Below, piece after piece: positions 14,660 through 42,461 of a stretch of 64,000 nt of DNA. Origin of the DNA: a virus (lineage: Duplodnaviria > Caudoviricetes); IMG/VR virus record IMGVR_UViG_3300024249_000001, positions 935 to 64,934 of that record; one strand, written 5' to 3'. The translations under genes and the position numbers were made by a program. The notes below the pieces were generated by a model. It was not told where the DNA came from, made no database searches, and was given only the letters and a program-made list of their open reading frames with translations. Each line of letters opens with the position of its first letter. Position 1 is the first letter of the stretch.

Positions 14660-14899
14660 CTAGGAAGGATGGGATTTCTCCTCCGCAATCCCGGCGAGCT
14701 TTCCCTCGGCGAGCGCGGCGGTCTTGATCACTTCTTGCATCTTTTCCATCTTGCCGTTCACGTCGTTCCGCACGACCTCGATGGCTTGTTTTGTTTCCGC
14801 GTGATTCCGGTCGCCCCAGATTTTAACCGCCGCCGCTACTATCGCGAGCGCGATGGTCTGCACGGCTCCCACAATGATCAGCACGCTCGGATCGGACAT
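14660..14899 (-). CDS. TM plus coiled-coil small protein
   Basis: N-terminal TM followed by EVVRNDVNGKMEK. Confidence 0.6.
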   Translation of the reverse strand: MSDPSVLIIVGAVQTIALAIVAAAVKIWGDRNHAETKQAIEVVRNDVNGKMEKMQEVIKTAALAEGKLAGIAEEKSHPS

Positions 14900-15324
14900 T
14901 AGGGCCTAATGCGTACTTTAGCACTTCCCGGACTCGCGGCGAGGTTGACGGCGTGGTTCGAGATCGTCGCCTGGGGCGCGGCGAGCGTGACCGTCACGCA
15001 CGGGGAGTTCCCCGGGCAGGTAAAAGTGGACGGGAGAGAAATGGTCACCGTCGCGATCGTCCCGGGCCGGATGAACGAGGCGTTCATGCCCAGGAGGAGC
15101 ATCTTGCCCTGGTACGCGCTGGCGCTCTTGTCCGGCGGGAGCGCCCTCACGGCCATCCCGGTGGTGGGGGTGTTCACACTGATGGTCCACTGGTAGGTAG
15201 TCGCGCCGATGGTCGCGGTTGTGACCGAACACACGAGAGGCTTGGCGCTGGTGGACGGGCAGACGATGCCCACCTGGGACCAAACGGGAAGGGCTAAGGC
15301 TAGCAACGCGAGCAGGAGCTTCAT
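14899..15324 (-). CDS. secreted cohesin-like protein
   Basis: Signal peptide MKLLLALLALALPVWS-Q; YQWTI..., DKSA..., LLGMNASFIRPGTIATV resemble acidobacterial cohesin-type domains. Confidence 0.55.
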   Translation of the reverse strand: MKLLLALLALALPVWSQVGIVCPSTSAKPLVCSVTTATIGATTYQWTISVNTPTTGMAVRALPPDKSASAYQGKMLLLGMNASFIRPGTIATVTISLPSTFTCPGNSPCVTVTLAAPQATISNHAVNLAASPGSAKVRIRP

Positions 15325-18300
15325 GGCCCGATCACGCATCCCTGGCCCAGGCTCGCGTTCACGACCCGCTGGACATCCGTCGCGGAGCAGGACCCGGACT
15401 GAGTGATCGAGTTGGTGCACCCCACGATCCCCAGGGCCATGTTGGTCTGGAGCTGGATGTCCAGGACATTGGGCAGGACTGGCGGAACCGCGTGAGTCGC
15501 CGGCGCGCAGGTGGGCAGCGGCGGAGTCACTCCCGCAATGGTGATGCTAAACGGCGAAGGCCCCGCGACGCCGAACGTGTTCGTCGCGGTCACGTTGAAG
15601 CTGGTCGTCCCGGAGACGGATGGTGTGCCGGTGAGGATCCCGGTGATCCCCAGAGTGGCCCAGGACGGCAGACCAGTGCTAGTCCAATTAATCGGCGTCG
15701 TCCCAGTCGCGCGAAACGTGTAGGAGTACGGAGTCCCCACCGCGCCATTGGGCAGCGGGCTGACGCTAGTGATAATCGGGGCGAGGTTCGGATTCGCAAT
15801 GGTGAGTGTGAAGGTCCGGGGGCCATCGCTCCCAGTGCTATTGGTAGCGGTCACGGCGAAGGAACTGGACGCCGCGGTGGGAGGAGTTCCGGTCAACGCT
15901 CCCACTGAAGAGAGCGATGCCCAGCTTGGGAGCCCCGTAGCGCCCCAGGTAATCGGTGCTGTGCCCGTTGCCGTGAACTGATAGGAATAAGCCGTGCCCG
16001 CAGTTGCGCCCGGTAGCGGAGTGGTGCTGGTGATGGACGGTGCGACCCCCGTCACCGTGAGACTGAAGTCGTGCGGCCCGTCGCTCCCCGTGCCGTTCGT
16101 TGCGGTGACGTGGAGAGTGCTCACAGCGACGGCGTTCGGAGTTCCGGTGAGCATCCCGGCGCTCGAGAGCGATGCCCATCCCGGGAGTCCCGTTCCGCTC
16201 CAGGTGATCGGCGCAGAGCCTCCGGCGGCAAACTGGAACGAATACCCCGTGCCCAACGTGCCGTTCGGGAGTGGGCTAGTGGAGGTGATCGTGGGCGCGA
16301 CGGGAGGTGTGACGACCGTGAGACTGAAGTTATGCGGGCCATCGGTCCCCGCGACATTCGACGCTGTTACTGCCAGAATCGTCGTGGTGCTGACGTTCGG
16401 CGTCCCGGTCAGAAGGCCGCTAGCCGATAGGCTCGCCCATGCAGGGAGTCCCGTGGCGGACCATGTGACCGGGCTGGTGCCGGTCGCGGCAAATTGGAAT
16501 GAGTACGGAGTCCCATTTGTCCCGCCAGGCAGTGGACTCATGCTGGTGATCACTGGCGGGATTCCGGCGATCGTGAGGGAGAAGTTCGTCGGCCCAGCGC
16601 TCCCGGCGGAGTTCGTCGCGCGGACGGACATGGTGGTAGTGGCGACGGCGTTCGGCGTCCCGTTCAGCAAACCCGCAGAGGACAAGGTCGCCCAGCTAGG
16701 TAAGCCAGTTGCGCTCCAGGTGATCGTCCCGGAGCCAGTCGCGGCGAATGCAAACGAGTACGGAGTGCCGATGGTCCCAGACGGGAGCGGATTCGTGGTG
16801 GTGATCACCGGCGCGCTAGAGGCGAGGCGCCATCCCAGGGCGTTGTCGATCCCAGGCGCGCCAAACGCCTCCCCGTAGTTCTTGCCCAGAATGGTGATGT
16901 TATCGGCGCCGAGGTTCCCGAACAGACAAGGCGGAGTGTTGACCGGACTCGTTGTGTTGCAATTCGCCGCCGCTTCCCAGGTGTCCGTCACCAGGCCATC
17001 GCAGGCTGGACCGGAGCACGGCAAGGTCTTCAGGCCCTCGTTGGCCGCGCTGGTGAGGCCCGCGGTGGGACCGCCCAGCTGAGCCGCAAGGCACTCATTC
17101 GTCCAAGCCAGGTAGGTCGCATTGAATGTCTGCGCGTAGAGCCATGCGATCCCGCCGCAGACTGTACGGGTCAGGTTCCGGTCCCCGGTGCCGTTGTTGC
17201 AGTAGGTCGCCGAGGAATGGCAAGCAGCGGAGGCGCTCGGCGCATAAGCCACCGCGCTCCCGCTGAGGTTCCCAATCTCCCCGTAGAGCCCGTAAGGAAC
17301 CGTGAGCGTCGCGTGCGTGTTATCGGCGCAGGAGGAGAACTTGTAAATCGTCCGCGGGGTGTTCAAGCCGATGAATGGGTTCGAGGTGCACTGCGCTAGG
17401 AAATTCGTCCCGCTCCCGACAATGCTTGTCGAGCCATGAGTGATGGCCACGGTCCCGGCGCCGGGAGAGATGGTCAGCTGATCGTTGGACTGCGAGTTGA
17501 CCTCGTAGTAGATCCCCCGGTTCGAAGTGTCGCGGCCATAGTTGTTCTGCCAAGTTACGGCCTTGGTGATCACCGCTAGGGTCGCCGCAGCGAGCGACGG
17601 GTTGTTGCATCCTTGTGCTCCATTATCGTTCAGGGACTCGTAGGACGCTTCCATGGCTTTGACGTTGATCGCCTCGCGCCACGGCGCCCCAGGATAGAGA
17701 AACGGACTTGCGAACGCTTTGGGGGCCGCCACGAAAGTTGGATTTATCTCATACTCCGCCTCTGGCCACGATCCATCCGGAGCCTGAACGGAGTTCCAGA
17801 TCGACGTGTAGGTCGAGAGCCAGGAGCAATACTGGGCGTGCCGGGTCGGGTCGGTGTCTACTTTCGCACCGAGCGCGATGTCCCAGAGCACATATCCGGC
17901 TTCGCGATTGTCGATGGCTGGGCTTGCGGAAGGGTCGGCCCATCGCGGAATTTCGCTAGAGATCCAAGTGTAGAGTCCAGGAAGGCGCTCTGTGTGCCCC
18001 TCAGTCACGCGGAAGAACTGCGAGATCATCGCCGCCGCCCGGGGAGCGAGCTGCCTGCGGTATCCGTGGTCGAGCGTCCACTGCCACTGAATGTCAGCAT
18101 AGGCGCGGGCTTGCGTGAGATACGTCGCGTTCCCGGTGCGAATCCACAGCCGATAGAGCGCGATCGCCACGTCGTAATAGTTCCAGACCGTCGAAGGATT
18201 CTCCGTCGTCCAGCATTGGAAGTCGCAGCCGTAGCTATTGGGCGGTGGCATCAGGTAGCCTGTCATGCCGGATTGCGACGGCTGCTGAAAGTCTCCATCG

Positions 18301-19742
18301 GCACAAACTACAGTGGTCGATGTCACGTTGGAGATCGGGCACATGAAGCGGCCGGTTCCAGGGCCGTCTACAGTCGTCCATGCGATGGTGATCCAGGCAA
18401 CTCCGGCAAGTGGGACACGCTGGTCTACTGTGGTCGTGAAGAACTGATTCCCCTGCACCCAGGAGAACGTCCCCGCGAGCGGAGTGCCAAGAGCGGGAGC
18501 CGCCGCGAGAGCAATCGGAGCCATATTGTCAGCGGTGCCCTTCTCCGCTAGATCCCCGAAGGTCCAAGGGTTCGAGCCGTAGGGCGTGAGCGGTCCAAGC
18601 AGGTTATTTTGGATCGCGGAGAGGCCAGTGATGCAGATGCCGTTCGCGTCGGTCGTGCAGGGGTTTGTTGGCGCTGCTCCTGGATTTGCCGATCCTACCC
18701 ATGCCGGATTGGTAAGAGACGCATAGTATAGATTAGTTCCGTCCGTCGTGATCTCATTCAATGAAAGCTCTGAGGTTCCGAAGTAGAACACCGAGGTTGC
18801 TAGTGTCCCTGGAGTGATCCGGCCTAGAGCACTGCGTTGCGTGCTGGTGTTTACAAAAGTCGCCCAGACATAAGTGCCGTCGAAGATGCAACCGCCATCA
18901 GAGGACCATCCTGCGCCGAGCGTCGGCGTGAAGTCGATCAAGGTCTGGCTGGTGAGGTTCGTCCGGTCGATGCGAATGACATTCGCGCCGGTTGTGTTTG
19001 GCGAAGTGGACTCCGATTGGATGTAAATATACGTCCCGTCGAAAGCCATCTCCTGCGGAGAGACAAACGCGACCGTCAGGTCTTGGGAATCTTCGGCTGT
19101 GAAAGTAGCGGTGTCGATCCTGGAAATCTCAGTCGGTATCGTGGAGGTGGACGAGTATAGTTTCCCATGCGCTGCATCGTAGACCATCGCGTGCGGGTTG
19201 CTGCGATTGCCATACGTGATATTGGAGACCCGTGCATAATCGGACAGGCGGTAACGGATAAGCGCGGAGGAGTTCAGTGGAGAGTTCTGATTCTTCACGA
19301 CATACAAGTATGTTCCGTCCGAAACCATCGTCCCGATGCTCGCCACGTTCGCTGGAGGAACCGTGTCGGAAACAACGTCGGTTGATGTTAGTGTCGTTGG
19401 ATCTACTTCTCCGATGGTCACGTTGGTTTGCGTCAGGAACCCGCCGAACAGGACATAGAGCTTCCCCTTAGACGGCACATAAATCACCGTGGAGGGATGC
19501 TTGTGGTTCCCGTCATTGGGAAATGTGACGCTATTGGTGGTAGCTCCAGTGGTCGGATTGATCTGGAGAAGTTGCCCCGGATCGGTGAAGGTCACGACCC
19601 AATAGGAGCCTAACGCATAGGTGCCGCCCTCGATAAAGTTCTGCCCGGTCGAGAGCGTCTGGAACCAACGAGGCGTTATGGTCTGCCCGAACGCCAGCGA
19701 CGCGACGAGCGCTAGCAGACCTGCTTGGATGCCGGACTTCAT
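15321..19742 (-). CDS. large secreted multidomain protein (1473 aa): beta-propeller-like region, central domain, five He_PIG Ig repeats, C-terminal dockerin-like domain
   Basis: Signal peptide MKSGIQAGLLALVASLAFG-Q; repeated ITS..PLP.G...Y.F...ATG...ITWS.TGLP.WA.L...G.L.GTP; C-terminus NVLDIQLQTNMALG...DVQRVVNASLGQGC. Confidence 0.85.
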   Translation of the reverse strand: MKSGIQAGLLALVASLAFGQTITPRWFQTLSTGQNFIEGGTYALGSYWVVTFTDPGQLLQINPTTGATTNSVTFPNDGNHKHPSTVIYVPSKGKLYVLFGGFLTQTNVTIGEVDPTTLTSTDVVSDTVPPANVASIGTMVSDGTYLYVVKNQNSPLNSSALIRYRLSDYARVSNITYGNRSNPHAMVYDAAHGKLYSSTSTIPTEISRIDTATFTAEDSQDLTVAFVSPQEMAFDGTYIYIQSESTSPNTTGANVIRIDRTNLTSQTLIDFTPTLGAGWSSDGGCIFDGTYVWATFVNTSTQRSALGRITPGTLATSVFYFGTSELSLNEITTDGTNLYYASLTNPAWVGSANPGAAPTNPCTTDANGICITGLSAIQNNLLGPLTPYGSNPWTFGDLAEKGTADNMAPIALAAAPALGTPLAGTFSWVQGNQFFTTTVDQRVPLAGVAWITIAWTTVDGPGTGRFMCPISNVTSTTVVCADGDFQQPSQSGMTGYLMPPPNSYGCDFQCWTTENPSTVWNYYDVAIALYRLWIRTGNATYLTQARAYADIQWQWTLDHGYRRQLAPRAAAMISQFFRVTEGHTERLPGLYTWISSEIPRWADPSASPAIDNREAGYVLWDIALGAKVDTDPTRHAQYCSWLSTYTSIWNSVQAPDGSWPEAEYEINPTFVAAPKAFASPFLYPGAPWREAINVKAMEASYESLNDNGAQGCNNPSLAAATLAVITKAVTWQNNYGRDTSNRGIYYEVNSQSNDQLTISPGAGTVAITHGSTSIVGSGTNFLAQCTSNPFIGLNTPRTIYKFSSCADNTHATLTVPYGLYGEIGNLSGSAVAYAPSASAACHSSATYCNNGTGDRNLTRTVCGGIAWLYAQTFNATYLAWTNECLAAQLGGPTAGLTSAANEGLKTLPCSGPACDGLVTDTWEAAANCNTTSPVNTPPCLFGNLGADNITILGKNYGEAFGAPGIDNALGWRLASSAPVITTTNPLPSGTIGTPYSFAFAATGSGTITWSATGLPSWATLSSAGLLNGTPNAVATTTMSVRATNSAGSAGPTNFSLTIAGIPPVITSMSPLPGGTNGTPYSFQFAATGTSPVTWSATGLPAWASLSASGLLTGTPNVSTTTILAVTASNVAGTDGPHNFSLTVVTPPVAPTITSTSPLPNGTLGTGYSFQFAAGGSAPITWSGTGLPGWASLSSAGMLTGTPNAVAVSTLHVTATNGTGSDGPHDFSLTVTGVAPSITSTTPLPGATAGTAYSYQFTATGTAPITWGATGLPSWASLSSVGALTGTPPTAASSSFAVTATNSTGSDGPRTFTLTIANPNLAPIITSVSPLPNGAVGTPYSYTFRATGTTPINWTSTGLPSWATLGITGILTGTPSVSGTTSFNVTATNTFGVAGPSPFSITIAGVTPPLPTCAPATHAVPPVLPNVLDIQLQTNMALGIVGCTNSITQSGSCSATDVQRVVNASLGQGCVIGP
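15533..16812 (-). repeat. five tandem ~85-aa He_PIG (putative Ig) repeats
   Basis: Repeats visible in the translation; boundaries approximate. Confidence 0.85.
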
Positions 19743-20521
19743 TAGAAGATCGTTCCGTGCCCCGGCGTCAGGCTTCCGGTTGCAGCCGTTGACTTGAATG
19801 ACGCAATTCCGGCGACTGCCGTAACTGGAGTACCCATCGCCCATTGTGGGTTCGCCGCCGCCGCCGATGTTTGAATCAAATAAGCCAAGGACACACCCCA
19901 GCTATTGACTGTGTAATCCGTAGTCCCTCCGGTTGGGATTGTGAAACCGCCATTGATAGAAACCGTTGATCCCATGAAATATCCGAGTCCAGCTATCACG
20001 AGTTCATTATTCTGCCCAGGCGTAATACTCCCCGTTGTCAAAGTTGTAGTTGCTGCCCCATTATTCCCATTCTGCTGATCGAATGGACTAGATGCGACTC
20101 CAGCAAATGCAGCAACACTCAAAGCTGGATAAGTTGCTCCGCCAGAAAGCGTAAACGTGTGACTCGCGTTTGTCGTTGGAGCTTGTTTGTAATAGATCGT
20201 AAGCTGTGGCTGGGACGAGCCATTCCATACCGTGAGAGCGGTATAACTATTAGACTGATTGTCGCTAAAAGTCTGACTTCCGCCGCTGATCTTAATAGTC
20301 ACAGCCACAATAAGGTTAGCCCCAACGGTGCTAATCGCAGCCGTTGTTACGTTGGTGGTATCCGACGATCCAGCGCTCTTGTTATTTCCTATCGTGATCG
20401 CGGCTTTTAGTTCTGGGACAACGATAAGAGACGATGCGGCGGCGACCCACAGACCGCCGCGCTTGATAAACTTCCTTCTCGTATCGAGATCAAACGAATC
20501 AGGATTGTTCGCTAGTCGCAT
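19742..20521 (-). CDS. Tat-exported beta-sandwich protein
   Basis: TRRKFIK twin-arginine motif, then a hydrophobic stretch and ELKA-A; start set by an upstream small ORF. Confidence 0.7.
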   Translation of the reverse strand: MRLANNPDSFDLDTRRKFIKRGGLWVAAASSLIVVPELKAAITIGNNKSAGSSDTTNVTTAAISTVGANLIVAVTIKISGGSQTFSDNQSNSYTALTVWNGSSQPQLTIYYKQAPTTNASHTFTLSGGATYPALSVAAFAGVASSPFDQQNGNNGAATTTLTTGSITPGQNNELVIAGLGYFMGSTVSINGGFTIPTGGTTDYTVNSWGVSLAYLIQTSAAAANPQWAMGTPVTAVAGIASFKSTAATGSLTPGHGTIF

Positions 20522-20646
20522 TTTAGTAACGCACTTGGCTTGCAGCCAATCGCGTTTGGCCCAAAGGTTATGATCAAGACGTAGGCAGCATAAAACAATC
20601 CCACGTAGACACAAAGAGTAATCGCATACCGGGCATGTATCTTCAT
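20512..20646 (-). CDS. 44-aa membrane peptide (MKIHARYAITLCVYVGLFYAAYVLIITFG...)
   Basis: Read manually; ATGA overlap with the upstream stop; one TM helix. Confidence 0.5.
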   Translation of the reverse strand: MKIHARYAITLCVYVGLFYAAYVLIITFGPNAIGCKPSALLKCD

Positions 20647-22739
20647 TGGTCACACTCCAAAACCGCGTTAAGGAATTTAGCTGTAGCTACCGCTGTGGGT
20701 TGGACCGCCATGATGTCATTGGCTGTGACGGTAGTTGTAGTGAAATCACTCACGGTCGTGGAGTGAATCGCCGTACCACTAGAAATCGCCACGCCAGACG
20801 TGTTGATCGAATTGGAGATCGTCGGAATCGCCGTCCCGGTGGCGATCTTCCAGAACTTGACCGTGATCGTCCCGGCGTCAATCAGGAGATTATAGGCGCT
20901 GATCGTGCAGGCGAAAGGGACTGTTAAATAAGTAACCGCTGCCGTTGTCAAGGCGCTAGAGTTTCCGGGATCGCCAAGCGTGAAGCCAATCCCGCGAGCT
21001 TTCATGCGGTCTACATAGGCAGTAGAAGCTAGCTTCGTACTATTATCGTCAGCAGCCACCGTCGCCGTGGTCGTGTTCGACATAACGCCACTCGCAGGTG
21101 TACCGAGAGCGGGAGTAACAAACGTAGGTGAAGTTAGCGTGGAACCAATGGCAAGCCATGTATTCGTTGCGGAGCAGTAATAGAGCGTCTGCCCTGTGTT
21201 GCCGTTCGTTTTATTAAACCAATCCACGCCAGAAGTGCAAGCCGCAGGCAGGCTGGTTCCGGACTGAAATGGAGATGTGTACCCGGCTGATCTGAAGTCA
21301 ACCGCGTGCGAAGATGTGCGACCACTGCCGCCGTTCTCGGTCGATGAGCTAATCATGAGCGGTATAATCGTGCCGGGGCAGTCCGAGTTCCCGCCCGCCC
21401 AATTGTCATTGCTGACCAGAAATCCCAAGTGGAACGAGTTGTACTGCGCCATCGTGCAGACCTGCGACCCCGTATAGTTATTGTTCATCGCGTAGAGGTT
21501 CGCATTGTCACCATCCGTGTTGGCGAACACAGTGTTAGCGCTACCGTAGAGTTTATTGCCGATGAAAATCAGGTTGACCGTCTGGCTGGCGTCAATGGAA
21601 GGAACACCCGCAGAAAGCGCCGCTTCCATCGTATTCCCGGTAAACGTAAGTGGCGGGTCGATTGCATGGCCTGTGACTACCAGCAACTGTCCCCCGCCTT
21701 CTGAATTCAAGCCCTTGATCGTCTGCGCCTCTGACCAGTTGGCTAGTTTGAATTCTATGGTGTTCGATTGAGTCTGCCAATTTTCAGCCTGAAAACTGCC
21801 GTTAGTTTCATTCAGAGCATTTGTGCAGTACGTGATTTGGGCATGATAAAATTGCTGAGTCTTAGCATTGGATGATGGCCCTAACTGAATCCCAATTCCT
21901 CCCGCTGCGGGCTTACCAGCAGTTCCACAAACTACCACAAGATCATAGAACTTCATATTCTCAACGTTATTGGCGGAAGTCGGAGCGATGCTGATGCCTT
22001 TGAACGTCGAGCGATTCACGTTCTCATAAACTGTCACGCGACGGAAGGTATTGTCGGTTGTGATCTGCGATGGCGATGCGTCCTGGTCAATCACAATCCC
22101 CACGTCGGCTTGGTTCGGCCCTGCGTCAGTAACAATCGTGAATCCCTCGAATAGAGAGTCCTGAGTCTTGATGCTCATCACGGTCCCACCAGCAGCGCCG
22201 TACCAGAGGAAGGATGATCCAGCCGTGGTCGGCGTTTGCGTTCCGCGTGATTCCCCGAGGGCGATGAATCGAAGTTGGCTCAACACGGGAATATTGATCG
22301 TGCTAGTAACTTTAGTCTGACAGGGATTTGGCATTATCACGGTATGTTGTGTGATCGTCCCCGCTGCGATTGCGGCAAATAGCGTGTTCCACGCGCTTGT
22401 GTCATCGGTCGATCCATCGCAAGTTACCCCTTGCTGAAGCGGGTTAATCGGAACGGATTTGCCTGAGCATACACCGAAGGTCGATGCGCTTGCCCAGCAC
22501 TGCATATCCTGTACCGATGTACCAGCGGGGGAGCTACCCCCGCCACCTGCAGCCGCGCCCCAGATCCCAGATTGGCAGGTATAAAGCGTGCCATTGGGTG
22601 TGAGCAGGTCAATTCCGGTTGCATTGCACGTCCCAGACGGCGCGACGGTCACATAAGCGATCTGGCGGTTGACGACCTGGCCCAATGCCCCCAGGACGAG
22701 GAAGACTAGCAGCAGGAGCAGCTTGAGTGTGCGTTCCAT
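20643..22739 (-). CDS. secreted tailspike-like beta-helix (pectate-lyase-fold) protein
   Basis: Signal peptide MERTLKLLLLLVFLVLGALG-Q; GVTCDGSTDDTSA motif; Asn/Thr-rich beta-helix. Confidence 0.75.
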   Translation of the reverse strand: MERTLKLLLLLVFLVLGALGQVVNRQIAYVTVAPSGTCNATGIDLLTPNGTLYTCQSGIWGAAAGGGGSSPAGTSVQDMQCWASASTFGVCSGKSVPINPLQQGVTCDGSTDDTSAWNTLFAAIAAGTITQHTVIMPNPCQTKVTSTINIPVLSQLRFIALGESRGTQTPTTAGSSFLWYGAAGGTVMSIKTQDSLFEGFTIVTDAGPNQADVGIVIDQDASPSQITTDNTFRRVTVYENVNRSTFKGISIAPTSANNVENMKFYDLVVVCGTAGKPAAGGIGIQLGPSSNAKTQQFYHAQITYCTNALNETNGSFQAENWQTQSNTIEFKLANWSEAQTIKGLNSEGGGQLLVVTGHAIDPPLTFTGNTMEAALSAGVPSIDASQTVNLIFIGNKLYGSANTVFANTDGDNANLYAMNNNYTGSQVCTMAQYNSFHLGFLVSNDNWAGGNSDCPGTIIPLMISSSTENGGSGRTSSHAVDFRSAGYTSPFQSGTSLPAACTSGVDWFNKTNGNTGQTLYYCSATNTWLAIGSTLTSPTFVTPALGTPASGVMSNTTTATVAADDNSTKLASTAYVDRMKARGIGFTLGDPGNSSALTTAAVTYLTVPFACTISAYNLLIDAGTITVKFWKIATGTAIPTISNSINTSGVAISSGTAIHSTTVSDFTTTTVTANDIMAVQPTAVATAKFLNAVLECDQ

Positions 22740-22789
22740 TTGTGGCAATGCTAACACGTTCGGGGCGGGATTAGAATAGAATGTTCGTC

Positions 22790-33469: not shown

Positions 33470-33477
33470 GAGCAAAC

Positions 33478-33750: not shown

Positions 33751-33751
33751 T

Positions 33752-34303
33752 CTAATGCGAACAGCGCGTTCTACCTCGACCATACGGGAGTGCTTGCACT
33801 CCAGTCAATTCGAGCGAACGCTTCAATCGATTATGGTTTCCCGGCTTAAGCCCAAGTTGTTTGGTGATGCAGCGAAGGCTATGGCCCGCATCCCAAAGTT
33901 TTTTGACCTGCTGGGCTCGAATTTCGTCTATAGTTGGACGGTTGATCCAATCTACAATCTGGTCCAGCTTAGCTTGTTTATCTTTGGCGTAAAAACCAAC
34001 GCGCGACTGGAACACCTTGATACTTGCCGCTCGGGTGATATGCAGGACACGACATGGTTTTCTGTTTTGCATCCGGCGCACAGGCCATTCCGTCCACGCA
34101 ATACCAAGTGCAGTGAGAAAAGTTCCGCACAGATTCATCAAGATGGGATCGGTGTTCGTTACAGTGACGTAGTAAGACGTATGTTTACGCCCAGCAGATT
34201 GTTTGCGAAAGCTAACGGAACCCTCGCCGTCGAAAAAACCTCGCAGCCATCCAGCCATGTAAGATTTGGATTCATAGCGCGCCATACCATCTATAGTAAC
34301 CAA
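33752..34303 (-). mobile_element. free-standing LAGLIDADG homing endonuclease
   Basis: WLRGFFDGEGSVS motif; antisense to the structural operon; AT-richer. Confidence 0.85.
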
Positions 34304-34328
34304 TTTGATCCAATTATGGGGGTGGCAC

Positions 34329-34508
34329 TTGGCTGAGAAATGGATTCAAGGTGCCATAAAGAAGCCGGGCGCTCTCCACAAAGAACTTGGAGTACCGCAG
34401 GGCAAGAAGATCCCCGAGGGCAAGCTGAAGAAAGCCGAGCACGCCGGCGGGAAGCTGGGCAAGCGCGCCCGGCTCGCCGAGACGCTCAAGGGAATGCACA
34501 AGGGTTGA
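34329..34508 (+). CDS. small basic phage protein (AEKWIQGAIKKPGALHKELG...)
   Basis: TTG start; KPGALH..LG.P motif. Confidence 0.7.
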   Translation: MAEKWIQGAIKKPGALHKELGVPQGKKIPEGKLKKAEHAGGKLGKRARLAETLKGMHKG

Positions 34509-34531
34509 GCCCGTTTCCTCCGAACCTACGA

Positions 34532-34562
34532 CAGGTTGGTCTTAGACCCGCCTGCCTTTTTT
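34532..34562 (+). terminator. possible intrinsic terminator
   Basis: Imperfect hairpin CAGG..GGTC-tta-GACC..CCTG followed by T6. Confidence 0.4.
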
Positions 34563-34567
34563 AGCTT

Positions 34568-35845
34568 ATGGGTGACAACTTCAACTCGCTCTGGAACAGG
34601 CTCCAGAACCGCTGCGCCTGCGGACCGGTCCTCGCCCAGCAGATGATAAATGACAGTTGGCACACGCTCCAGGCGATGGAAGAGTGGAGCTGGCGGCGGA
34701 GGAGCTTTACTATCGCCCCGCCTGATCTCTATATCACCGGCACGGTGAGCACCAATGTCGCCGCGGGGAATCCGTTCCTGCTGACCGGAGTCGCGACCGC
34801 CTGGACTCCCCAGATGATCGGCCGTCAGATCCGCCTGGGCGGCCTGCTCTACCCGTACTACACCATCGTAGGCTGGCTCAGCGCGACCCAGATTCTGATC
34901 GACCAGCCCTGGGCCGGGGCGGATGTGGCGGATGTCACGTACCAGATCCTCCAGCTGTGGTTCCCGGTCCCGGAGGACTTCGGATACTTCTACCTGGCGG
35001 TGTCGATCAAAGACGCATATCGGATCTACACGGACTTGACCCAGGCGGAATTGGGACTGCTCGACCCCCAGCGGACCAACCAGGGCCAGACCTATGGGAT
35101 AGCGTTTTATGACTTCTCGCCCCAACTCGGCGGGATCGTCGGGCCAGTCGTGCCGGTCACCTCGCCGACGGATCCGACTCCAATCAGCACGACTTCGCTC
35201 GGGTTCAGCTACCCGGCGAACGCCACTTATGTGATCCAGGTCGTCGCGCCCGGAGTCTCCGGAACCGCGACCTTCGCGTGGCTCCGCGCCGGGCAAGTTG
35301 CGTTCCAGCCGGTCCAGGCCACCTCGGACCAGCCGATCGATCTCTCCGACGGGGTGCAGATCTACTGGCCCGACGGCGTGACCTACGTCGCCGGGGATCT
35401 GTTCGTAATCAACTGCGTCTCGCAGGTGAGCGGCGCCGTCCCGCGGTATGAGCTGTGGCCCGCCCCGACCTTCTCTGGCTATCTCTATCCGTGCATCTAC
35501 ATCGCCAAGGAATACGACGTCACGCAGCAGAATCCCACGCTCCCGCCGTTTGTCGCCAACCGCGGCGAGATCCTGCTGGAGATGACGCTGGAGAAATGTG
35601 CCATGCTCCCCAGCTACATGCAAGAGGGCGCGGGCACGCAGGCGAATCCCTATTATGACCTGAAGCTGGCCCAGATGCACCGGGCGCACTGGCAGGACAT
35701 GCTGATCGACTTCAGGAACAACGACCAGAACGTCGGGATCTCCGTGCTCGGCTACCAGAACCTCAGCTATGCCGGACCGTTCGCCGGACCATACGGGATC
35801 TTCTTCGATGGCGGTTACCAACAACAACACGCTCCGACTTTGTAG
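34568..35845 (+). CDS. head-tail adaptor/completion protein with an inserted beta domain
   Basis: Position; helical N- and C-termini typical of adaptors. Confidence 0.55.
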   Translation: MGDNFNSLWNRLQNRCACGPVLAQQMINDSWHTLQAMEEWSWRRRSFTIAPPDLYITGTVSTNVAAGNPFLLTGVATAWTPQMIGRQIRLGGLLYPYYTIVGWLSATQILIDQPWAGADVADVTYQILQLWFPVPEDFGYFYLAVSIKDAYRIYTDLTQAELGLLDPQRTNQGQTYGIAFYDFSPQLGGIVGPVVPVTSPTDPTPISTTSLGFSYPANATYVIQVVAPGVSGTATFAWLRAGQVAFQPVQATSDQPIDLSDGVQIYWPDGVTYVAGDLFVINCVSQVSGAVPRYELWPAPTFSGYLYPCIYIAKEYDVTQQNPTLPPFVANRGEILLEMTLEKCAMLPSYMQEGAGTQANPYYDLKLAQMHRAHWQDMLIDFRNNDQNVGISVLGYQNLSYAGPFAGPYGIFFDGGYQQQHAPTL

Positions 35846-35882
35846 CGTCTCGTGTTAAGATCGAACCCAAAGGAGTTCACCC

Positions 35883-36077
35883 ATGGCTGAAGAAGTGAAA
35901 GGCAAGACCGCATCCGGGCTAGAGGGCGCGGGCGCAGGATACAACGGCGGGAACGCTCCCACCTCGGCAGAACTGAAGGCCCCGGTCAAGATCTATCCCG
36001 GCGCGTCCAAGCTCCCCACGACCCCCGGCAAGGGACTGATCGAAGGTCCATGCTCGGGCAAGCCGGGCTACAAATAA
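35883..36077 (+). CDS. small hypothetical protein
   Basis: AAGGAG SD. Confidence 0.55.
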   Translation: MAEEVKGKTASGLEGAGAGYNGGNAPTSAELKAPVKIYPGASKLPTTPGKGLIEGPCSGKPGYK

Positions 36078-36087
36078 TCGCTAGAAT

Positions 36088-37419
36088 GTGCCTTACGCTC
36101 AGATCACCCTCGCGAACTTCATCGCCCAGCTGGGGACTAATCTCGACGACACTGCTGGGCTCTATTGGACCGACGCCGAAAAAACGTTCGCGGTCCAAGA
36201 GGGCCTCCGCGTCTTCGGGGCCGTCACAAGCTACTGGCGCACGCGCGGGGGATTCTCAACCTCTCCCGCCGCGACGTATTACGATCTCAGCGTAGTCCTC
36301 CCGACCCTGCGCACCCGCACCTGGACCCTCCAGCAGCTTACCCAGGAGATCCAATTCACGCTGCTAGAGGCCGCGAATGGAATCTCCGGCGCGGGAATGA
36401 GCGGGCAGGTCCAGATCCAGAACATCCTCCAGGCCATCCAACGCGCCCGGAACCGATTCGTGCTCGACTCCCGGCTCCCATACTCGGCAATCGTCGCGCC
36501 CCCGGGCGTCCCCCCGCCCAACGGGCTAGTGCAGTTCGACCAGTCGGTGATTTATCTTCACCGCGCGGCTTGGCAAGACTTCGGCTCGGGCGGCACTCCC
36601 GGCGCCTGGACGAATCTATGGCGCGAGGACGCCTGGCAGGTCGATCACGGCTCCCCGCGCTGGACGATCGAGCCCGGAAGTCCCGTGCAGTACTCCGAAG
36701 CAGAGCTCGCTCCGCTCCAGGTGCAACTCTCCCCTGCGCCGACCAACTCCGGAGCGCTGGAGATCCTCGGAATCCTCTCCAAGACGCTCGATCTCACCGA
36801 TCCCAACGAGACCTTCGGCATCCCGGACGAGTGGATCCACGCGGTGAAGTACGCCGCGCTCGCCGATCTCTTTGGCCCGAACTCCCAGATCTACGATCCG
36901 CTCCGCGCCCAATACTGCGAGACCCGGTACACACAAGCGCTCGATTTCGCCAAGTCCGCCCGGAGTCTCCTGCGCGTAATGGTGAACGGGGTGCCGCTCG
37001 GGATCGACTCGCTCGCCGCGCTCGACGCGGGCCAGCCGTTCTGGCGGAATCAAAGCGCAATGCCGAATCTCGCCGGCGTGCTCTACGACATCCTGGCGTT
37101 CTCCAGTCAGGTTCCAGGGAGCGCGGGCGTCACTTGCGACGTGGTCCAGTCCGCGCCCATCCCGATCGCGTCCTCCGACTTCATCCCGCTCGGCGAGGAA
37201 GATCTGGGCCCGCTCACGGACTACTGCACCCACATCCTGACCATCAAGTGCGGCGGGAAGGAGTTGTCGAGCACTATGGGCGATTACGATAACTTCGCCC
37301 GAGCCTGCGCCCAGCGCCTCGGGATCACGAAGGCTAAGGTCCGGATGCTGGAGCCGCTCTTCGGCATGGCAGGACGGGAATGGCAAGCGCGCCCAGACCG
37401 GATGGAGGCCGCGCGCTAA
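36088..37419 (+). CDS. head-tail adaptor-like virion protein
   Basis: Two adaptor-like units (YWTDAE... and IPDEWIHAVKY). Confidence 0.55.
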   Translation: MPYAQITLANFIAQLGTNLDDTAGLYWTDAEKTFAVQEGLRVFGAVTSYWRTRGGFSTSPAATYYDLSVVLPTLRTRTWTLQQLTQEIQFTLLEAANGISGAGMSGQVQIQNILQAIQRARNRFVLDSRLPYSAIVAPPGVPPPNGLVQFDQSVIYLHRAAWQDFGSGGTPGAWTNLWREDAWQVDHGSPRWTIEPGSPVQYSEAELAPLQVQLSPAPTNSGALEILGILSKTLDLTDPNETFGIPDEWIHAVKYAALADLFGPNSQIYDPLRAQYCETRYTQALDFAKSARSLLRVMVNGVPLGIDSLAALDAGQPFWRNQSAMPNLAGVLYDILAFSSQVPGSAGVTCDVVQSAPIPIASSDFIPLGEEDLGPLTDYCTHILTIKCGGKELSSTMGDYDNFARACAQRLGITKAKVRMLEPLFGMAGREWQARPDRMEAAR

Positions 37420-37961
37420 TGTCCTTCATGGGGCCCATTCCGCCAGTTGCCTCTTCCCAAACGAGCAAGTTATTTGCGCCTGCTGCGCCCAAGCCCGCTC
37501 CGATTATCCCGCCGGTCCAAGCTGCCGCGTCTGATCCGCTGGACTTCACTGCGCACTATAACACCCCAATCCCGCCCGCGCGTCAAGCGGCATTTGACCA
37601 GTGGGTCCAAGCACGCACGGCAGCCGGACGGAACCCGCTCAATGACCGATATGATTACGACGTGAATGGATATTTTTTGTCCGGCGCTGCCAACGACCCG
37701 CGCGGCCACGGACCGGATACGTTCAAGAAACCGAACCATCCGACGTTCTCCAACGAGAGCCAGTATCACGGCCGCGATGGGAACTATGGCGGGAGATGGA
37801 TCACTCAAAACGGCGGGAGTTTCTACGAGCCCTCGTCGCACAATATTCGAATGCACGGGATTGATAAGCTCAAGCAGTATTTCCAGCAGGTCGAACCCGA
37901 GACGCAATTGCTCGTGCCGCCTATGAGCCCACAGCAGATCGGTGCGGGAGTGATCCGATGA
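37419..37961 (+). CDS. conserved phage protein
   Basis: YDVNGYF...GHGPDTFKKPNHPTFSNES motif. Confidence 0.6.
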   Translation: MSFMGPIPPVASSQTSKLFAPAAPKPAPIIPPVQAAASDPLDFTAHYNTPIPPARQAAFDQWVQARTAAGRNPLNDRYDYDVNGYFLSGAANDPRGHGPDTFKKPNHPTFSNESQYHGRDGNYGGRWITQNGGSFYEPSSHNIRMHGIDKLKQYFQQVEPETQLLVPPMSPQQIGAGVIR

Positions 37962-38086
37962 CCCTCGGCGAATACATCCTGGAGCTAAAGGACGCCCTCG
38001 CCGCGCTCCAAGCGGAAGTCGAAGCGCTCAAAGCCCGCGTGCTCGAACTTGAATCCCGGCCACGCGCAAGGAGTGCTCGTGCCTGA
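37958..38086 (+). CDS. small coiled-coil protein
   Basis: Read manually; ATGA overlap. Confidence 0.45.
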   Translation: MTLGEYILELKDALAALQAEVEALKARVLELESRPRARSARA

Positions 38087-40694
38087 GATCATCCGCCTCC
38101 CCACACGCATGGACTGCGACGGCCTGGACGTCATGCACCCCGCCGACCGGATGCCGCCCAAGACCTTCCCCGTGCTCCAAAACGCGCGGGTGGTTGAGGA
38201 AGGGCGGCTGGAATCCCGCCCCGGATACACGCCCTACGACACCGGCACCCGCGTGCACTCCATGCGCAGGCTGAACGACCCGGCGGATCTGTTCAACACC
38301 GCCGGATACACGAACGTGGTTGGAGACGGGAATCTCCTGCGCGTCGGACCCCAGGGCGCTCTAGTCACGGTCGATCAAGACTACTCAGGGCACCCGCTCT
38401 CGCTGCTGACGTTCCGTCCGGACCAGTCCCCCGAGACCTGGATGTACGTGTACGACCAGAACAAACAGGCGAAGGTCAGGCCGGACGGGGTGGTACAACC
38501 CATCGGAGTCCCCCCGCCGGCGACCGGCCCGGTGGCCAACGCCACCTATGGCCCCCCGGCGAACGTCGACGCCTCGATCGGGCAGGCGACCGCCGGGTGG
38601 GCCCCGCAGGGCGGCGCCGGAGCCGTGACCCTGGGCGACCGTGCCTCGCAGATGTCCACCGGGACCGGACTCACGATCGGGACGATTCTTTACGACGTTG
38701 GCACCAATGGATGGTGCGTGATCGTCCCCGCCTCGGGCACTCCCGGGGATCTCGTGCCGGACCAAATGGGCAACCGGATGAAAGTGATCCTCCAGACCGG
38801 ACCCGAGACCGTGCTGGTCCGCGAGGTCCATGCTGATGTTGGAACGACCACGATCGCCGGAATCCAGTACGACCTGGGAAATAACGGCGTCTGCACCATC
38901 GTACTCGCCTCCCAGCCCACAGGCGGGAACCTCCAGGCCCTCACCCGGAACTCGGTCCTGAGGCTGGGAGGGGGCGAGTACGTCCGGGTGCTCTCCGTCA
39001 CGCTCTCCCCAGACGGCTCGACGTATTCGATCCGGTGCTCCACGCTAGCCACCCACTTCGCCGGGGACGCCGTCGCCGGGGCGCTCTCCTGGTACTGCTA
39101 CACCGTGGGCACGCACGCCGCAGGCGAGACCATTGCTTCGCATTACATCTATGCCGCAGTCGCCAGCGCCACTCCGGTCACCAGCTCGCTCCTGGCCGCC
39201 TCGCTCTCGCTCAACCTCGGCTCCGCATCCTCCCGCCCGATCGACCCGGCGAACGACTGGATGCATATCAGCTTTTACTGCGACGCCCCGCAGAACCTCG
39301 GATACCTGCTGCTACAAATCTACATCGGCACCGGCGCGGCGAACGACTACTACGGCTGGACCGTGACGGCGGACACGCTCTCCAGCGGCTGGAACGAGAT
39401 CCTCCTGCCGATCGCCAGCGCCGACCGGGTCGGCGCGCACACCGGGGATTCGCTCTCGAACTCCACCGGGCTCCAGGTGTTCGTCCAGTCCAACGGGCCG
39501 CTGACGTTTGGGTTCGACTGGTGGTATCTCTTTGGGACCTACGGGCCGACGGTCCAGCCCAATTCGCCGGTGGGACTCAGCTACGTCTCGACCAACCGGA
39601 ACTCAGGGACAGGCGCGGCTAGTGTCCCGAGTCCTCCCCTGCGGTTCCAGCTGTTCCCGCTGCGCGAGCAGGTGCTGGTCACACCCCAGCCGAACGCCCT
39701 CGCATACAACGGCGTGCCATACGTCGACAAGCTCGACATCTATCGCCTGGGCGGATCGATCACGAACTTCACTTATGTGGGAACCGTCGCAAACAATGCA
39801 CTCGCCCCGGCGACTTATGCAGACAACCTGCCCGATACCAGCATCGAGTCCTCTCCCCAAGCGGACTTCAGCCTGATCCAGCCCTGGCCGGTGCTAGTGC
39901 AACCACGCTCCGGGACCGTGAACGTGGTCGGCACCAAGGTGACTTGGAACTCCGGCGACTACTTCGACCTCACGCTGCTCTCGGCAAGCGTGATCCTGAT
40001 CAACGGCGTCGCCTTCCAGACCTACGGGCAGTCCCGGATCGGCACGGACCTGGAACTCTTCCTCAACGCGGGCGTGCAGACGAACGTGCCGTACCAGATC
40101 GCGAGCCCGACCCTCGCCGCCCAGCCGCTCCCGCTCGCCTTCGGACCTCTGGAGGGGCCGCTCGCCCCGGTCGCCTTCGCCTTGGGCGATCTCGTCAACG
40201 CCGGGACGCTCTACTATTCCAATATCTCGAACCTGGACGCCGCCTCGGACCAGAACACGGTGGAAATCGCCCCGCCGGGCGAGCCGCTGATCTCGGGAGC
40301 AGTGTGGAACGGCTACGTAATTGTGGGCAGCCGAGAGAACCTCTATATCGCGCGCTACAGCTATCTCCAGACCCTCGGAGTCCCCGGCCAGACAACGTTC
40401 CAGTTCAATCGGCTGCCCTCGCCCTCCGGCGGGATGTGGTCCCGCTGGTCGGTGTGCGCCGGTGCGGACGGAGTCTACTTCCTCGGCCGCGACGGGATCT
40501 ACCGCGCAACTGAGCAGGGCGCGGTGTCGATCACCGATCACCGGTTGTATCCGCTGTTCCCGCACGACGGGGAACCCGCCCGGACGAGCTATGGTCTGCT
40601 CCCGGTCAACATGTCCAACCTCCCAGCCCTGCGCCTCTCCGCCGCCGACGAGGACGTGTACTTCGACTATTCGACCGCGTCCGGAGCCTCGTAG
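38079..40694 (+). CDS. tail hub/stabilisation protein (P22 gp10-like), N-terminal and main part
   Basis: GTG start with AAGGAG; LQNARV..G.LESRPG, beta-propeller repeats, DGVYFLGRDGIY; ends abruptly at YFDYSTASGAS. Confidence 0.65.
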   Translation: MPEIIRLPTRMDCDGLDVMHPADRMPPKTFPVLQNARVVEEGRLESRPGYTPYDTGTRVHSMRRLNDPADLFNTAGYTNVVGDGNLLRVGPQGALVTVDQDYSGHPLSLLTFRPDQSPETWMYVYDQNKQAKVRPDGVVQPIGVPPPATGPVANATYGPPANVDASIGQATAGWAPQGGAGAVTLGDRASQMSTGTGLTIGTILYDVGTNGWCVIVPASGTPGDLVPDQMGNRMKVILQTGPETVLVREVHADVGTTTIAGIQYDLGNNGVCTIVLASQPTGGNLQALTRNSVLRLGGGEYVRVLSVTLSPDGSTYSIRCSTLATHFAGDAVAGALSWYCYTVGTHAAGETIASHYIYAAVASATPVTSSLLAASLSLNLGSASSRPIDPANDWMHISFYCDAPQNLGYLLLQIYIGTGAANDYYGWTVTADTLSSGWNEILLPIASADRVGAHTGDSLSNSTGLQVFVQSNGPLTFGFDWWYLFGTYGPTVQPNSPVGLSYVSTNRNSGTGAASVPSPPLRFQLFPLREQVLVTPQPNALAYNGVPYVDKLDIYRLGGSITNFTYVGTVANNALAPATYADNLPDTSIESSPQADFSLIQPWPVLVQPRSGTVNVVGTKVTWNSGDYFDLTLLSASVILINGVAFQTYGQSRIGTDLELFLNAGVQTNVPYQIASPTLAAQPLPLAFGPLEGPLAPVAFALGDLVNAGTLYYSNISNLDAASDQNTVEIAPPGEPLISGAVWNGYVIVGSRENLYIARYSYLQTLGVPGQTTFQFNRLPSPSGGMWSRWSVCAGADGVYFLGRDGIYRATEQGAVSITDHRLYPLFPHDGEPARTSYGLLPVNMSNLPALRLSAADEDVYFDYSTASGAS

Positions 40695-40700
40695 GGTCCC

Positions 40701-41951
40701 ATGCCGATCGTCACCCTCGCGCCGATCCTGGCCGATCCGGCGGATTTCTCCCGCCAGTCCGGGACCGAGATCAACCCGTTTATCTTTCTCAAGGGCTCCC
40801 TGATCTATCAGGTCCTGGTCGACAGTAACACCGGCGGACTCGCGGTGTTCAAGGCCACCGCCGCCGGCGTGAACTCCCTGGCGCTCGACGCCGCGAATGC
40901 CCCGCAGATCCGCAGCGGAGGTGCGCTGGTCTGCTATTCCGACCCGGCCTCCGCGATCATTTCCATCGCCTACCGCGAGACCGCCAGCTTCAACCTCGCG
41001 ATTGTAGATTTTGACACCGCGACCGATACTTATGGAACTCCGATCGTCTCGACGCTGAACAGCGGCACGGCATTTGCGGCCGGGGCCGGGCTGTTCCATC
41101 GCACCAGCAACGGACTCTACTACATCATCTACCCCGTCGCAGGACAGCTTTCCTACCGGACCATCGACGGCGGCGGGACCACCTCTGCCGCCGTGGCCAT
41201 GACCCCCGCCGTGAGCGCCGGACAGGGGATGTTCTACACGAAATTCGACGAGTCCACCGGGATCGCCTTCTTCTTTTATCTCGTGAGCATCGCCGGGGGA
41301 CACTTCAACTGCATCACGCTCTCGGCTGCGGATGTCGTCGGAACGCTGGTAAACATCGACACCGATGGCGTCGAATGGGTAGAGGCGGTCATTCAGAGCG
41401 GCACACTCAGCGTCGCCTGGATCAACAACGACGGGAGCAAGGTAAAGACCTCCTCTGCGACCGTTGCCACGGCCCCAACTTTCGCGGCCTCCACCACCCT
41501 CGCCACATTAACGCCGCCCGAAGTAGCCACCTATATTTCGATTACCTTCATCGGCGCGACGCTCACGGTCCTCTGGTGCCTGACGGATCTCTCATTCGAT
41601 CCGGGAGTGGACGAGATTGACTATTCCCAGTTCATCGCGAGCGCCTGGACCGCCCCTGCGGTGTTTTACGACGAACTCACCAATCCTCCCGCGGGCGGCT
41701 TGGCTTATCCCAATCAATTCGTCCACACCCTCCAGGTCTTGGGCACCGCGGGCGGCGGCTGGTTCGCCTTCACTGCGATGGAGACGGAAGCGGCTTGTAC
41801 CGGGTTCATCCTGGTCGCCCCCGGCGCGGCCCCCCCGGTGCCCACGCTCCTCTGCCCGATTGTCTCGACCGCGATGATCGGCGTGCCATTCTCGACCATG
41901 CTGCTTGCGAGCGGCGGCACTCCGCCCTACACGTTCGCGATTCTCAGCTAA
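40701..41951 (+). CDS. beta-propeller-like protein ending in the N-half of a He_PIG domain
   Basis: In frame with the upstream gene (TAG GGT CCC ATG); C-terminus GVPFSTMLLASGGTPPYTFAILS*. Confidence 0.7.
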   Translation: MPIVTLAPILADPADFSRQSGTEINPFIFLKGSLIYQVLVDSNTGGLAVFKATAAGVNSLALDAANAPQIRSGGALVCYSDPASAIISIAYRETASFNLAIVDFDTATDTYGTPIVSTLNSGTAFAAGAGLFHRTSNGLYYIIYPVAGQLSYRTIDGGGTTSAAVAMTPAVSAGQGMFYTKFDESTGIAFFFYLVSIAGGHFNCITLSAADVVGTLVNIDTDGVEWVEAVIQSGTLSVAWINNDGSKVKTSSATVATAPTFAASTTLATLTPPEVATYISITFIGATLTVLWCLTDLSFDPGVDEIDYSQFIASAWTAPAVFYDELTNPPAGGLAYPNQFVHTLQVLGTAGGGWFAFTAMETEAACTGFILVAPGAAPPVPTLLCPIVSTAMIGVPFSTMLLASGGTPPYTFAILS

Positions 41952-41954
41952 GAC

Positions 41955-42461
41955 ATGATCACGCTCACTCTAGCATCCGGCTCAGGGATCGAAGGCGGGA
42001 CGCTCCCGCTCACGCTCACGATTGCCAGCACGAGCGGCGATGCCTGTACATCGGTGCAATTCACCCTCTCCTACAATCCCGCCGATCTCACCCTCACCAG
42101 TGCCGTCGCGGGTGCGTCCGCCACCGGCGCTTCGAAGATGGTGAACCGCGCCGGGAACCTGATCGTGATCTGGGGCCTCAACACGAATGTGATCGCCGAC
42201 GGGACGCTCTGCACCCTGAACTTCTTGGTCTCTAACCCAGTCACGCACGGCTCGATTCCGATCACGCTCACATCCATCGTCGCCTCCGACGCGAGCGCCA
42301 ATCCGCTCTCGACCACCGGGGTCGCCGGGACGGTCACCGTGAATATCGTCACCATTGCATGCCCCGTCGGCGGGGGGAGCGCGTCCAAGGGCCAGAATTA
42401 TTCCGCGCAGCTACTAGCGTCCGGCGGCACTGGTCCGTATACTTTCACTATCACTGGATGA
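41955..42461 (+). CDS. cytoplasmic cohesin-like domain plus the N-half of a He_PIG domain
   Basis: VQFTLSYNPADL...AGASA..ASK...WGLNTNVIADGTL; C-terminus YSAQLLASGGTGPYTFTITG*. Confidence 0.7.
   Translation: MITLTLASGSGIEGGTLPLTLTIASTSGDACTSVQFTLSYNPADLTLTSAVAGASATGASKMVNRAGNLIVIWGLNTNVIADGTLCTLNFLVSNPVTHGSIPITLTSIVASDASANPLSTTGVAGTVTVNIVTIACPVGGGSASKGQNYSAQLLASGGTGPYTFTITG

Follow-up and report, generated by a model that had tools for sequence, protein, structure and literature searches.

Gene content of the window

The DNA analysed here (the window, 64,000 nucleotides) comprises bases 935–64934 of the virus record IMGVR_UViG_3300024249_000001, which is 64,934 bp in length, is bounded by direct terminal repeats and has a completeness rating of 100%. 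Three of its genes are the subject of this work: one for a large exported protein that ends in a dockerin-derived module, referred to below as the plug; an adjacent gene for a small exported cohesin-like protein (the small cohesin); and a gene for a second cohesin, without a signal peptide, that lies among the tail-hub genes (the tail cohesin). All three are taken as phage genes because the record is a complete virus genome bounded by its terminal repeats. The genome also has genes for a portal protein (phrog_156, E 2.5e-13) and a major head protein (phrog_9953, E 6.5e-11), for a protein resembling SU10-type adaptors (Pfam E 1.3e-5) and for a pectate-lyase-like tail fibre or spike; these identify the phage as podovirus-like. 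Relatives were compared in three further virus records (G001, G002 and G003; the window's own record is G000). The features under discussion are listed in Table 1.

Table 1. Positions in the window of the exported proteins, their modules and the split tail hub, with the basis of each assignment.
Feature	Position	Strand	Basis
Large exported protein, 1473 amino acids (aa)	15321–19742	−	Translation, Pfam, cysteine count, hydrophobic N-terminus
Five He_PIG immunoglobulin (Ig)-like repeats	15528–16814 (approximate)	−	Five Pfam stretches, repeat motifs located
Dockerin-derived plug, last 67 aa of the large protein	15324–15524	−	Alignments A3 and A7, hhalign, HMM and fold searches
Small exported cohesin-like protein, 141 aa	14899–15324	−	Signal peptide, hhalign to the tail cohesin, AlphaFold, VIA-align
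Two small membrane proteins of 79 aa, holin-like by shape	14399–14899	−	Hydrophobic segments; function inferred
N-terminal part of the split tail hub	38049–40694	+	BLASTP to residues 15–167 and 243–532 of the 983-aa G001 hub
Second head protein, 416 aa, propeller-like	40701–41951	+	Translation; ends in the N-half of a He_PIG domain
Tail cohesin head	41955–42461	+	Pfam Cohesin; residues 3–129 cohesin, ~133–168 N-half of He_PIG; no signal peptide
335-aa protein	42466–43473	+	Residues 1–48 C-half of He_PIG, remainder counterpart of the C-terminal third of the hub

A large exported protein ends in a dockerin-derived module

The large protein is identical to database protein P0007 and comprises, from N- to C-terminus, a Sec signal peptide (MKSGIQAGLLALVASLAFG/Q; 12-residue hydropathy 2.35), a set of N-terminal repeats, a conserved middle domain, the five He_PIG repeats (Pfam E 9.6e-47) and the plug. 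With its 23 cysteines, it has the signal peptide, the many cysteines and the five Ig repeats that the original prediction had attributed to it. The He_PIG repeats would serve as a spacer between the enzyme-like body of the protein and the plug. The middle domain of ~615 residues (residues 396–1010 of a 1507-aa reading from an ATG at 19844; about residues 362–976 in the 1473-aa numbering; window 16800–18650) is 68% identical to that of G001, a value far higher than that for core genes (30–42%) and one that points to recent exchange or strong constraint. It has no family match and no sequence match in the PDB; its nearest cluster in the Atlas, where clusters are unnamed, is bacterial and mostly from Acidobacteriota.

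The plug has two duplicated helices (DIQLQTNMALG and DVQRVVNASLG) and, across its relatives, four invariant cysteines. Its first calcium loop is absent and replaced by CxPxTHxxPP, and its second is degenerate (SITQSGSCSATD in the window), the canonical form (DINQDGVCNTVD) occurring in L004 alone; if a dockerin is defined by two 12-residue calcium loops (DxNxDG.....D), each followed by a helix, the plug falls short in its loops, the helices being duplicated and present. It also lies outside the Dockerin_1 family model (PF00404), which one of six plug relatives reaches at E 0.069. NCBIfam and Pfam gave no match for the plug or the small protein of the window, and a sequence search of solved structures with the plug, either alone or as a profile, returned chance matches and no dockerin.

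Common descent with dockerins is indicated by profile comparison, the plug profile aligning from its first helix to its end with the dockerin part of the small-cohesin family described below (hhalign 97.7%, E 1.3e-12, 47 columns) and directly matching a bacterial Dockerin_1 domain (E 3e-5). A shared fold is indicated by the AlphaFold model (pLDDT 75.3), which consists of two helices: the top ~24 Foldseek matches were all dockerins (E-values 0.12 and weaker), as were the top 20 in VIA-align (Z 6.2–4.3, over almost whole chains; best match 5lxv_B, Z 6.2, root-mean-square deviation (rmsd) 2.3 Å over 59 residues), the presence of true dockerins in the model's alignment biasing this comparison towards dockerins. 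By these profiles and this predicted model the plug is a dockerin-derived module with degenerate loops, and the duplicated, dockerin-like helix motif with degenerate calcium-binding loops proposed originally is borne out.

The plug is conserved on varying cargo

The module was found in nine further proteins at 60–96% identity, all from phage-like contexts, and both helices are invariant across phages (D-I-Q-x-Q-x-N-M-A-L-G and D-V-Q-R-x-V-N-A-x-L-G). It is the best-conserved segment between these phages among the parts compared: identity between the window and G001 or G003 respectively is 70% and 60% for the plug; 52% and 46% for the tail cohesin; 39% and 38% for the portal; 42% and 35% for the capsid; 40% and 33% for the adaptor; and 32% and 30% for the hub; the small cohesin is 33% identical to that of G001 and absent from G003.

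The bodies attached to the plug include a GH18 catalytic domain in L031 (E 2.5e-25), fn3 plus other parts in L002 and five Ig repeats in L004; in L006 the whole protein is 181 aa long, and in G002 a pectate-lyase-like helix is placed after the module, which is therefore internal. Signal peptides stand at the start of every plug-bearing protein whose N-terminus was read, and each of G000–G003 has one copy of the plug. This pattern points to a constant tag on varying, unrelated exported cargo.

The small exported protein has a cohesin fold

The small cohesin gene and the large gene share 4 nt, at the start of the former and the end of the latter, and the product of the small cohesin gene begins with a signal peptide (MKLLLALLALALPVWS/Q). 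It matches nothing in Pfam at E ≤ 1 and so lies outside the Cohesin family model (PF00963); a word-index homologue search returned only the protein itself, and comparison with the sequences of solved structures gave only chance antibody matches. A full HMMER search with a three-member profile recovered 20 relatives; in those of ~200–220 aa the same beta-sandwich precedes a canonical two-loop dockerin. Pfam Dockerin_1 was detected in 10 of 19 family members (best E 9.8e-11) and Pfam Cohesin was touched by one (E 0.0093). The family profile aligned with the tail cohesin (hhalign 94.5%, E 7.7e-8) and recovered it in a scan of the genome (E 6.5e-12), the two phage cohesins sharing ~26% identity. 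The AlphaFold model is all-beta (pLDDT 81.3, pTM 0.71); its top seven Foldseek matches are cohesins, as are the top 27 rows in VIA-align (Z 12.0–7.9), with 2jh2_C as the best match (Z 12.0, rmsd 3.0 Å, 118 of 141 residues). Taking a cohesin fold to be a flattened beta-sandwich together with homology to a recognised cohesin, the small protein has one by predicted structure; and its signal peptide, profile alignment and fold matches agree with the secreted cohesin-like domain of the original prediction.

In the window, L002, L003, L031, G001 and G002 the gene for the small cohesin abuts or overlaps that for the plug; in L005 it is placed a short way upstream. G003, a complete genome, lacks the gene; none was found on L004, a short contig, and L006 is too short to judge. 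In G001, G002 and L005 the small cohesin carries a canonical dockerin of its own and therefore looks adaptor-like; these copies speak against the placeholder role that had been suggested for it.

In L004, L005 and L009 the gene right after the plug gene (L004:2903-3223, L005:3728-3904 and, in L009/G003, which like L004 shows no small cohesin, downstream of 6180) is not the small cohesin; it encodes a conserved protein without a signal peptide (MS.VNAIF.Q..P.TV.MTIGGS...WLKL.APWVNEVAAY...).

The small cohesin gene of the window is followed immediately by those for the two 79-aa membrane proteins; L003 encodes, further along the same strand, a cell-wall hydrolase (Pfam Hydrolase_2). A PHROG search on the small downstream genes gave no useful match in support of a role in lysis. 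The neighbourhood of small cohesin, membrane proteins and hydrolase suggests a late lysis block.

The tail cohesin belongs to a split hub appendage

The tail cohesin open reading frame (ORF) falls within the Pfam Cohesin family (PF00963; E 1.3e-9, with 38.8 bits where the cut-off is 24.1, and 39 bits when the whole genome was scanned) in a match that spans positions 2–139 of the 139 in the profile, and it is the sole Pfam cohesin in the genome. The best sequence match among solved structures, a weak one, is the cellulosomal 4uyp_A (E 0.1). The last ~35 residues of the ORF are the N-half of a He_PIG domain whose C-half opens the 335-aa protein.

The domain is 46–52% identical to the N-terminal domains of hub-adjacent proteins in G001 and G003; its gene adjoins the hub gene in every relative and is conserved above core genes. 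Pfam Cohesin gave no match at E ≤ 1 in G001–G003, and the family profile A5 detects the domain in all three. The gene behind that for the 981–983-aa hub encodes, in G001 and G003, a protein with a cohesin at its N-terminus, a spacer made up of serine-rich repeats or of three He_PIG domains, and the peptide ...PLLLLNEPVEQVGT at its C-terminus; the product of the following gene has a propeller head, a single He_PIG domain and a C-terminal end closely similar to that of the cohesin protein. Further cohesin-headed members of 249–528 aa have the same head and end, with spacers of varied length. Because different heads share one C-terminal peptide, the C-terminus would be the anchor and the cohesin would lie distally.

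G001 and G003 encode the hub as a single protein of 981–983 aa (L018:8822-11773); the phage of the window instead has an 881-aa N-part and a C-part, kept apart by ~1.8 kb that encode head modules. Residues 3–48 of the 335-aa protein correspond to positions 48–95 of the Pfam He_PIG profile, and the protein matches residues 652–917 of the 983-aa G001 hub (BLASTP). The propeller ORF and the cohesin ORF both stop at the identical point within a He_PIG domain, and the 335-aa ORF opens with the half that is missing from each. When joined (X at the break), the cohesin ORF and the next ORF are collinear with a single G003 protein (47% identity over 209 residues, E 4e-55); similarly, the propeller ORF and the 335-aa ORF are collinear with the propeller–He_PIG–anchor proteins of G001 and G003. 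In addition, ~390 residues are inserted in the N-part of the hub compared with G001.

In this block the first three ORFs lie in a single reading frame, with TAG and TAA between them, and the last is in the +1 frame after a TGA. An assembly or sequencing error at the junction between the cohesin and 335-aa ORFs was rejected, as the 181 nt across it are identical in four independent assemblies; the cohesin ORF is identical in three assemblies besides that of the window. A programmed +1 frameshift at GGA-TGA-G is unlikely because the Gly tRNA cannot re-pair in the +1 frame and because a Shine–Dalgarno-like GGAUGAG plus an ATG also come immediately after; reassignment of a stop codon is likewise unlikely, since the three junctions use TAG, TAA and TGA. 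It is more likely that the cohesin ORF and the 335-aa ORF are made as separate chains, and the split He_PIG domain could be a natural case of fragment complementation in which the partners alternate. Whether the halves join in this way or through recoding, the tail cohesin is tied to the hub.

The original prediction of a cohesin without a signal peptide within the tail-hub genes therefore stands, except that it is not free-standing, since it ends in half a He_PIG domain. Its placement on the tail hub is supported by the collinearity with hub-adjacent head–spacer–anchor proteins and by the split Ig domain that continues into a hub fragment, and the division of the three parts into two exported and one cytoplasmic holds by N-terminal sequence.

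A spike-like gene after the adaptor (window 44141-46258; G001:21775-23349; G003:47059-48888) encodes a Sec-type signal peptide in all three phages, in which its products are only 38–44% identical; the signal in the window may be of the lipoprotein type (LLSC). As this gene too has a signal peptide in three phages, export of tail-module enzymes seems to be a habit of the group.

Occurrence in other viruses and bacterial relatives

When 2.9 million viral contigs were scanned with alignments, the plug turned up in three viral records and the tail cohesin in the same three, two of which are rated complete and one 79%. With the window, both parts are therefore present in four of four long virus records (G000–G003; three rated complete, one 79%), which is the co-occurrence of dockerin and tail cohesin in relatives that had been put forward as a check. 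Single-protein queries (P0003 and P0004) against the same contigs gave no matches, only the alignment-based searches succeeding. The plug had no match in 185,579 species genomes, and neither the plug nor the tail cohesin was matched in 50,697 GenBank phage records. Since G003 carries the plug and the tail cohesin without the small cohesin, the tail cohesin is the only phage socket in all four long records.

The species genomes yielded a single relative of the tail cohesin, a 403-aa Pfam cohesin in an Anaerolineaceae metagenome-assembled genome (L048:5199-11863, CAZNRD010000023.1). It is flanked by two genes for Dockerin_1-tagged proteins, which have Laminin_G plus SpoIID or peptidase M23 domains, in what seems to be a non-cellulosomal cohesin–dockerin set organising peptidoglycan-active enzymes; on account of this position between tagged enzymes, the clade of the tail cohesin can be said to keep company with dockerins. 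Further, a family of Sec-exported bacterial proteins of 850–1690 aa (P0043 and P0046–P0053) begins with a cohesin that shares 35–41% identity with the tail cohesin and is also conserved at the C-terminus (...LVLQYVGNTISSVNVQSLP). Two of these genes were looked up (loci L049 and L050) and lie among ordinary metabolic genes. The hosts of these phages are probably in Acidobacteriota.

Apart from the genes discussed above, two unannotated ORFs of the window have an unusually high identity to G001: one of 115 aa (10982-11329, minus strand; 77%) and one for a 205-aa multi-pass membrane protein (12446-13063, plus strand; 68%).

Proposed docking of the exported enzyme and alternative explanations

We favour, with somewhat less than even confidence, the proposal that a phage cohesin receives the plug of the exported enzyme, with the tail cohesin as the conserved partner. 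The tail cohesin is preferred because it is present in all four records, is conserved above core genes and would be displayed on the tail. Under this proposal disulfides would replace calcium as the stabiliser of the plug, fitting its folding in an oxidising periplasm; cysteines in place of calcium loops would also explain why the cargo is exported, as the module must fold in the periplasm. The plug would be joined via Ig spacers to large, swappable, Sec-exported enzyme-like proteins that fold outside the cytoplasm. Of its two candidate sockets, one would be the cohesin that is made in the cytoplasm and stands as the head at the far end of an appendage of the tail hub; most members would have as a second the small co-exported cohesin, which in some phages could act as an adaptor through its canonical dockerin. 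At lysis the exported enzyme would meet the virions and plug into the tail cohesin, directly or through the small cohesin–dockerin adaptor, and the released particle would thereby be armed with a glycan-degrading enzyme. We infer the steps of export, disulfide formation, choice of socket and timing at lysis. Docking of exported enzymes onto released virions is plausible, though the balance still tips slightly against it; the full scheme, in which Sec-exported disulfide-rich enzymes, a calcium-independent dockerin derivative and a tail cohesin together allow post-lysis arming that is modular and exchangeable between phages, with part of the assembly extracytoplasmic, is more tentative and should be regarded as doubtful.

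A number of observations weigh against docking on the tail. The plug and the tail cohesin are evidently made in different compartments. Dockerin_1 gave no match at E ≤ 1 in the large protein or the whole genome and none at E ≤ 10 with the module alone; the bias in the fold comparison acts in favour of dockerins; and with one calcium loop lacking and the family model failed, the plug may have lost cohesin binding. It is internal rather than C-terminal in G001 and G002. The four genomes in which plug and tail cohesin co-occur form one clade, so shared ancestry could explain the association and the evidence from it is weak. Next to the plug gene in seven of ten contexts, the small cohesin is a co-exported and simpler partner; and as the two phage cohesins are only ~26% identical, their specificity probably differs. 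Finally, the likely hosts own similar sockets, and either phage part may therefore have a partner in the host.

One host-directed reading, which we think unlikely, is that the tail cohesin is a receptor-binding head for dockerin-tagged surface proteins of the host, the plug protein and the small cohesin being separate matters. It is consistent with the far closer similarity of the tail cohesin to the bacterial N-terminal cohesins (domain E ~1e-34) than to the small cohesin of the phage, with the ordinary chromosomal surroundings of the bacterial cohesin-headed genes, and with the position of the cohesin at the free end of a tail appendage, the usual place of receptor-binding domains; however, no host dockerin partner was identified, and the presence of one conserved, phage-specific plug in every tail-cohesin genome is left unexplained. 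We give a similarly low probability to a pairing of the plug with only the small cohesin or host scaffolds, in a free or cell-bound complex on the host envelope or matrix that does not involve the tail cohesin. The arrangement of the genes, abutting or overlapping in six loci and close by in L005, fits this well, as do the signal peptides that would place both products in the same compartment; the continuation of the block into membrane proteins and, in L003, the cell-wall hydrolase, in the manner of a late lysis operon; and the top fold matches of the small cohesin (2jh2, 2w1n and 2vo8), which are non-cellulosomal cohesins of Clostridium perfringens. It is less easily reconciled with a small cohesin that is missing from the complete G003 and was not found on L004, and that is poorly conserved between the window and G001 while the helices of the plug are invariant.

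It is also conceivable, but improbable, that there is no cohesin–dockerin binding at all, the cohesins being generic beta-sandwich or glycan-binding heads and the plug a disulfide-stapled cap or sorting tag. The failure of the plug against Dockerin_1 and the loss of its first calcium loop would be expected in this case; cohesin-like modules outside cellulosomes are often without a known partner, and Ig-like or carbohydrate-binding-module-like sugar-binding heads are common on phage appendages. Set against this, the duplicated helices, with which true dockerins contact their cohesins, do not vary between phages that share 30–40% identity elsewhere; a constant tag with variable cargo is typical of a docking tag; and two cohesins and one or two dockerin-type modules recur together in the same genomes.

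Comparison with known docking systems

Cohesin–dockerin pairs, non-cellulosomal ones included, are well known. The cellulosomal type I pairs (C. thermocellum 1OHZ/2CCL; A. cellulolyticus ScaB Coh6–Cel5 Doc 5NRM/5NRK) resemble the phage set in having a beta-sandwich socket and a two-helix duplicated plug that is terminal on varied secreted glycan-active enzymes; entries of such pairs are among the top fold matches for both phage models, and the cohesin-plus-dockerin small proteins of G001, G002 and L005 resemble an adaptor scaffoldin. However, where a cellulosome combines a multi-cohesin scaffoldin with a substrate-binding module and cell anchoring, the phage genome has one cohesin by Pfam and two single-cohesin proteins by profile; no scaffoldin-like gene was seen in it, and the set has neither a multi-cohesin scaffoldin, nor a carbohydrate-binding module, nor a cell-wall anchor. 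The phage plug further differs in its missing calcium loop 1, degenerate loop 2, four conserved cysteines and failure against the Pfam model; and the parts are phage-encoded, one of the sockets belonging to a tail appendage of cytoplasmic origin.

In structure the small cohesin best matches the C. perfringens cohesins 2JH2, 2W1N, 2VO8 and 2O4E (Z 12.0, 11.3, 11.2 and 9.8). In that species single cohesins and dockerins join large secreted glycosidases outside any cellulosome; the differences are that its genes are chromosomal, the organism is Gram-positive, the dockerins are of the calcium type and there is no link to a virus particle.

Branched tailspikes (G7C gp63.1/gp66, CBA120 TSP1–4 and the Klebsiella phage K64-1 type) place swappable depolymerases on one tail via small conserved docking domains. 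They are similar to the phage set in that cargo is exchangeable between phages through conserved docking domains; by comparison, those domains stand at the N-terminus, have no relation to dockerins and are assembled in the cytoplasm, whereas the plug is a dockerin-derived tag at or near the C-terminus of Sec-exported proteins.

Implications

No paper on a natural phage-encoded cohesin–dockerin system was found in the full-text literature, the coverage of which is incomplete. The 67-residue plug and the two cohesins of ~130 residues are small, defined parts that allow direct testing by means of synthetic genes even though the phage is uncultured; and a calcium-independent, disulfide-stapled dockerin with a matching cohesin would, if confirmed, be a useful orthogonal pair for protein assembly. 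If instead one of the host-directed readings holds, phages would be exploiting the cohesin–dockerin surface systems of non-cellulolytic bacteria, probably Acidobacteriota.

The particles of tailed phages are thought to be assembled wholly in the cytoplasm, with depolymerases attached by dedicated N-terminal anchors. A tail socket and a plug on an exported enzyme, both encoded by one phage, would, if the docking proposal is correct, represent a new way of equipping a virion, and would explain how cysteine-rich enzymes that need an oxidising compartment could join the phage toolkit.

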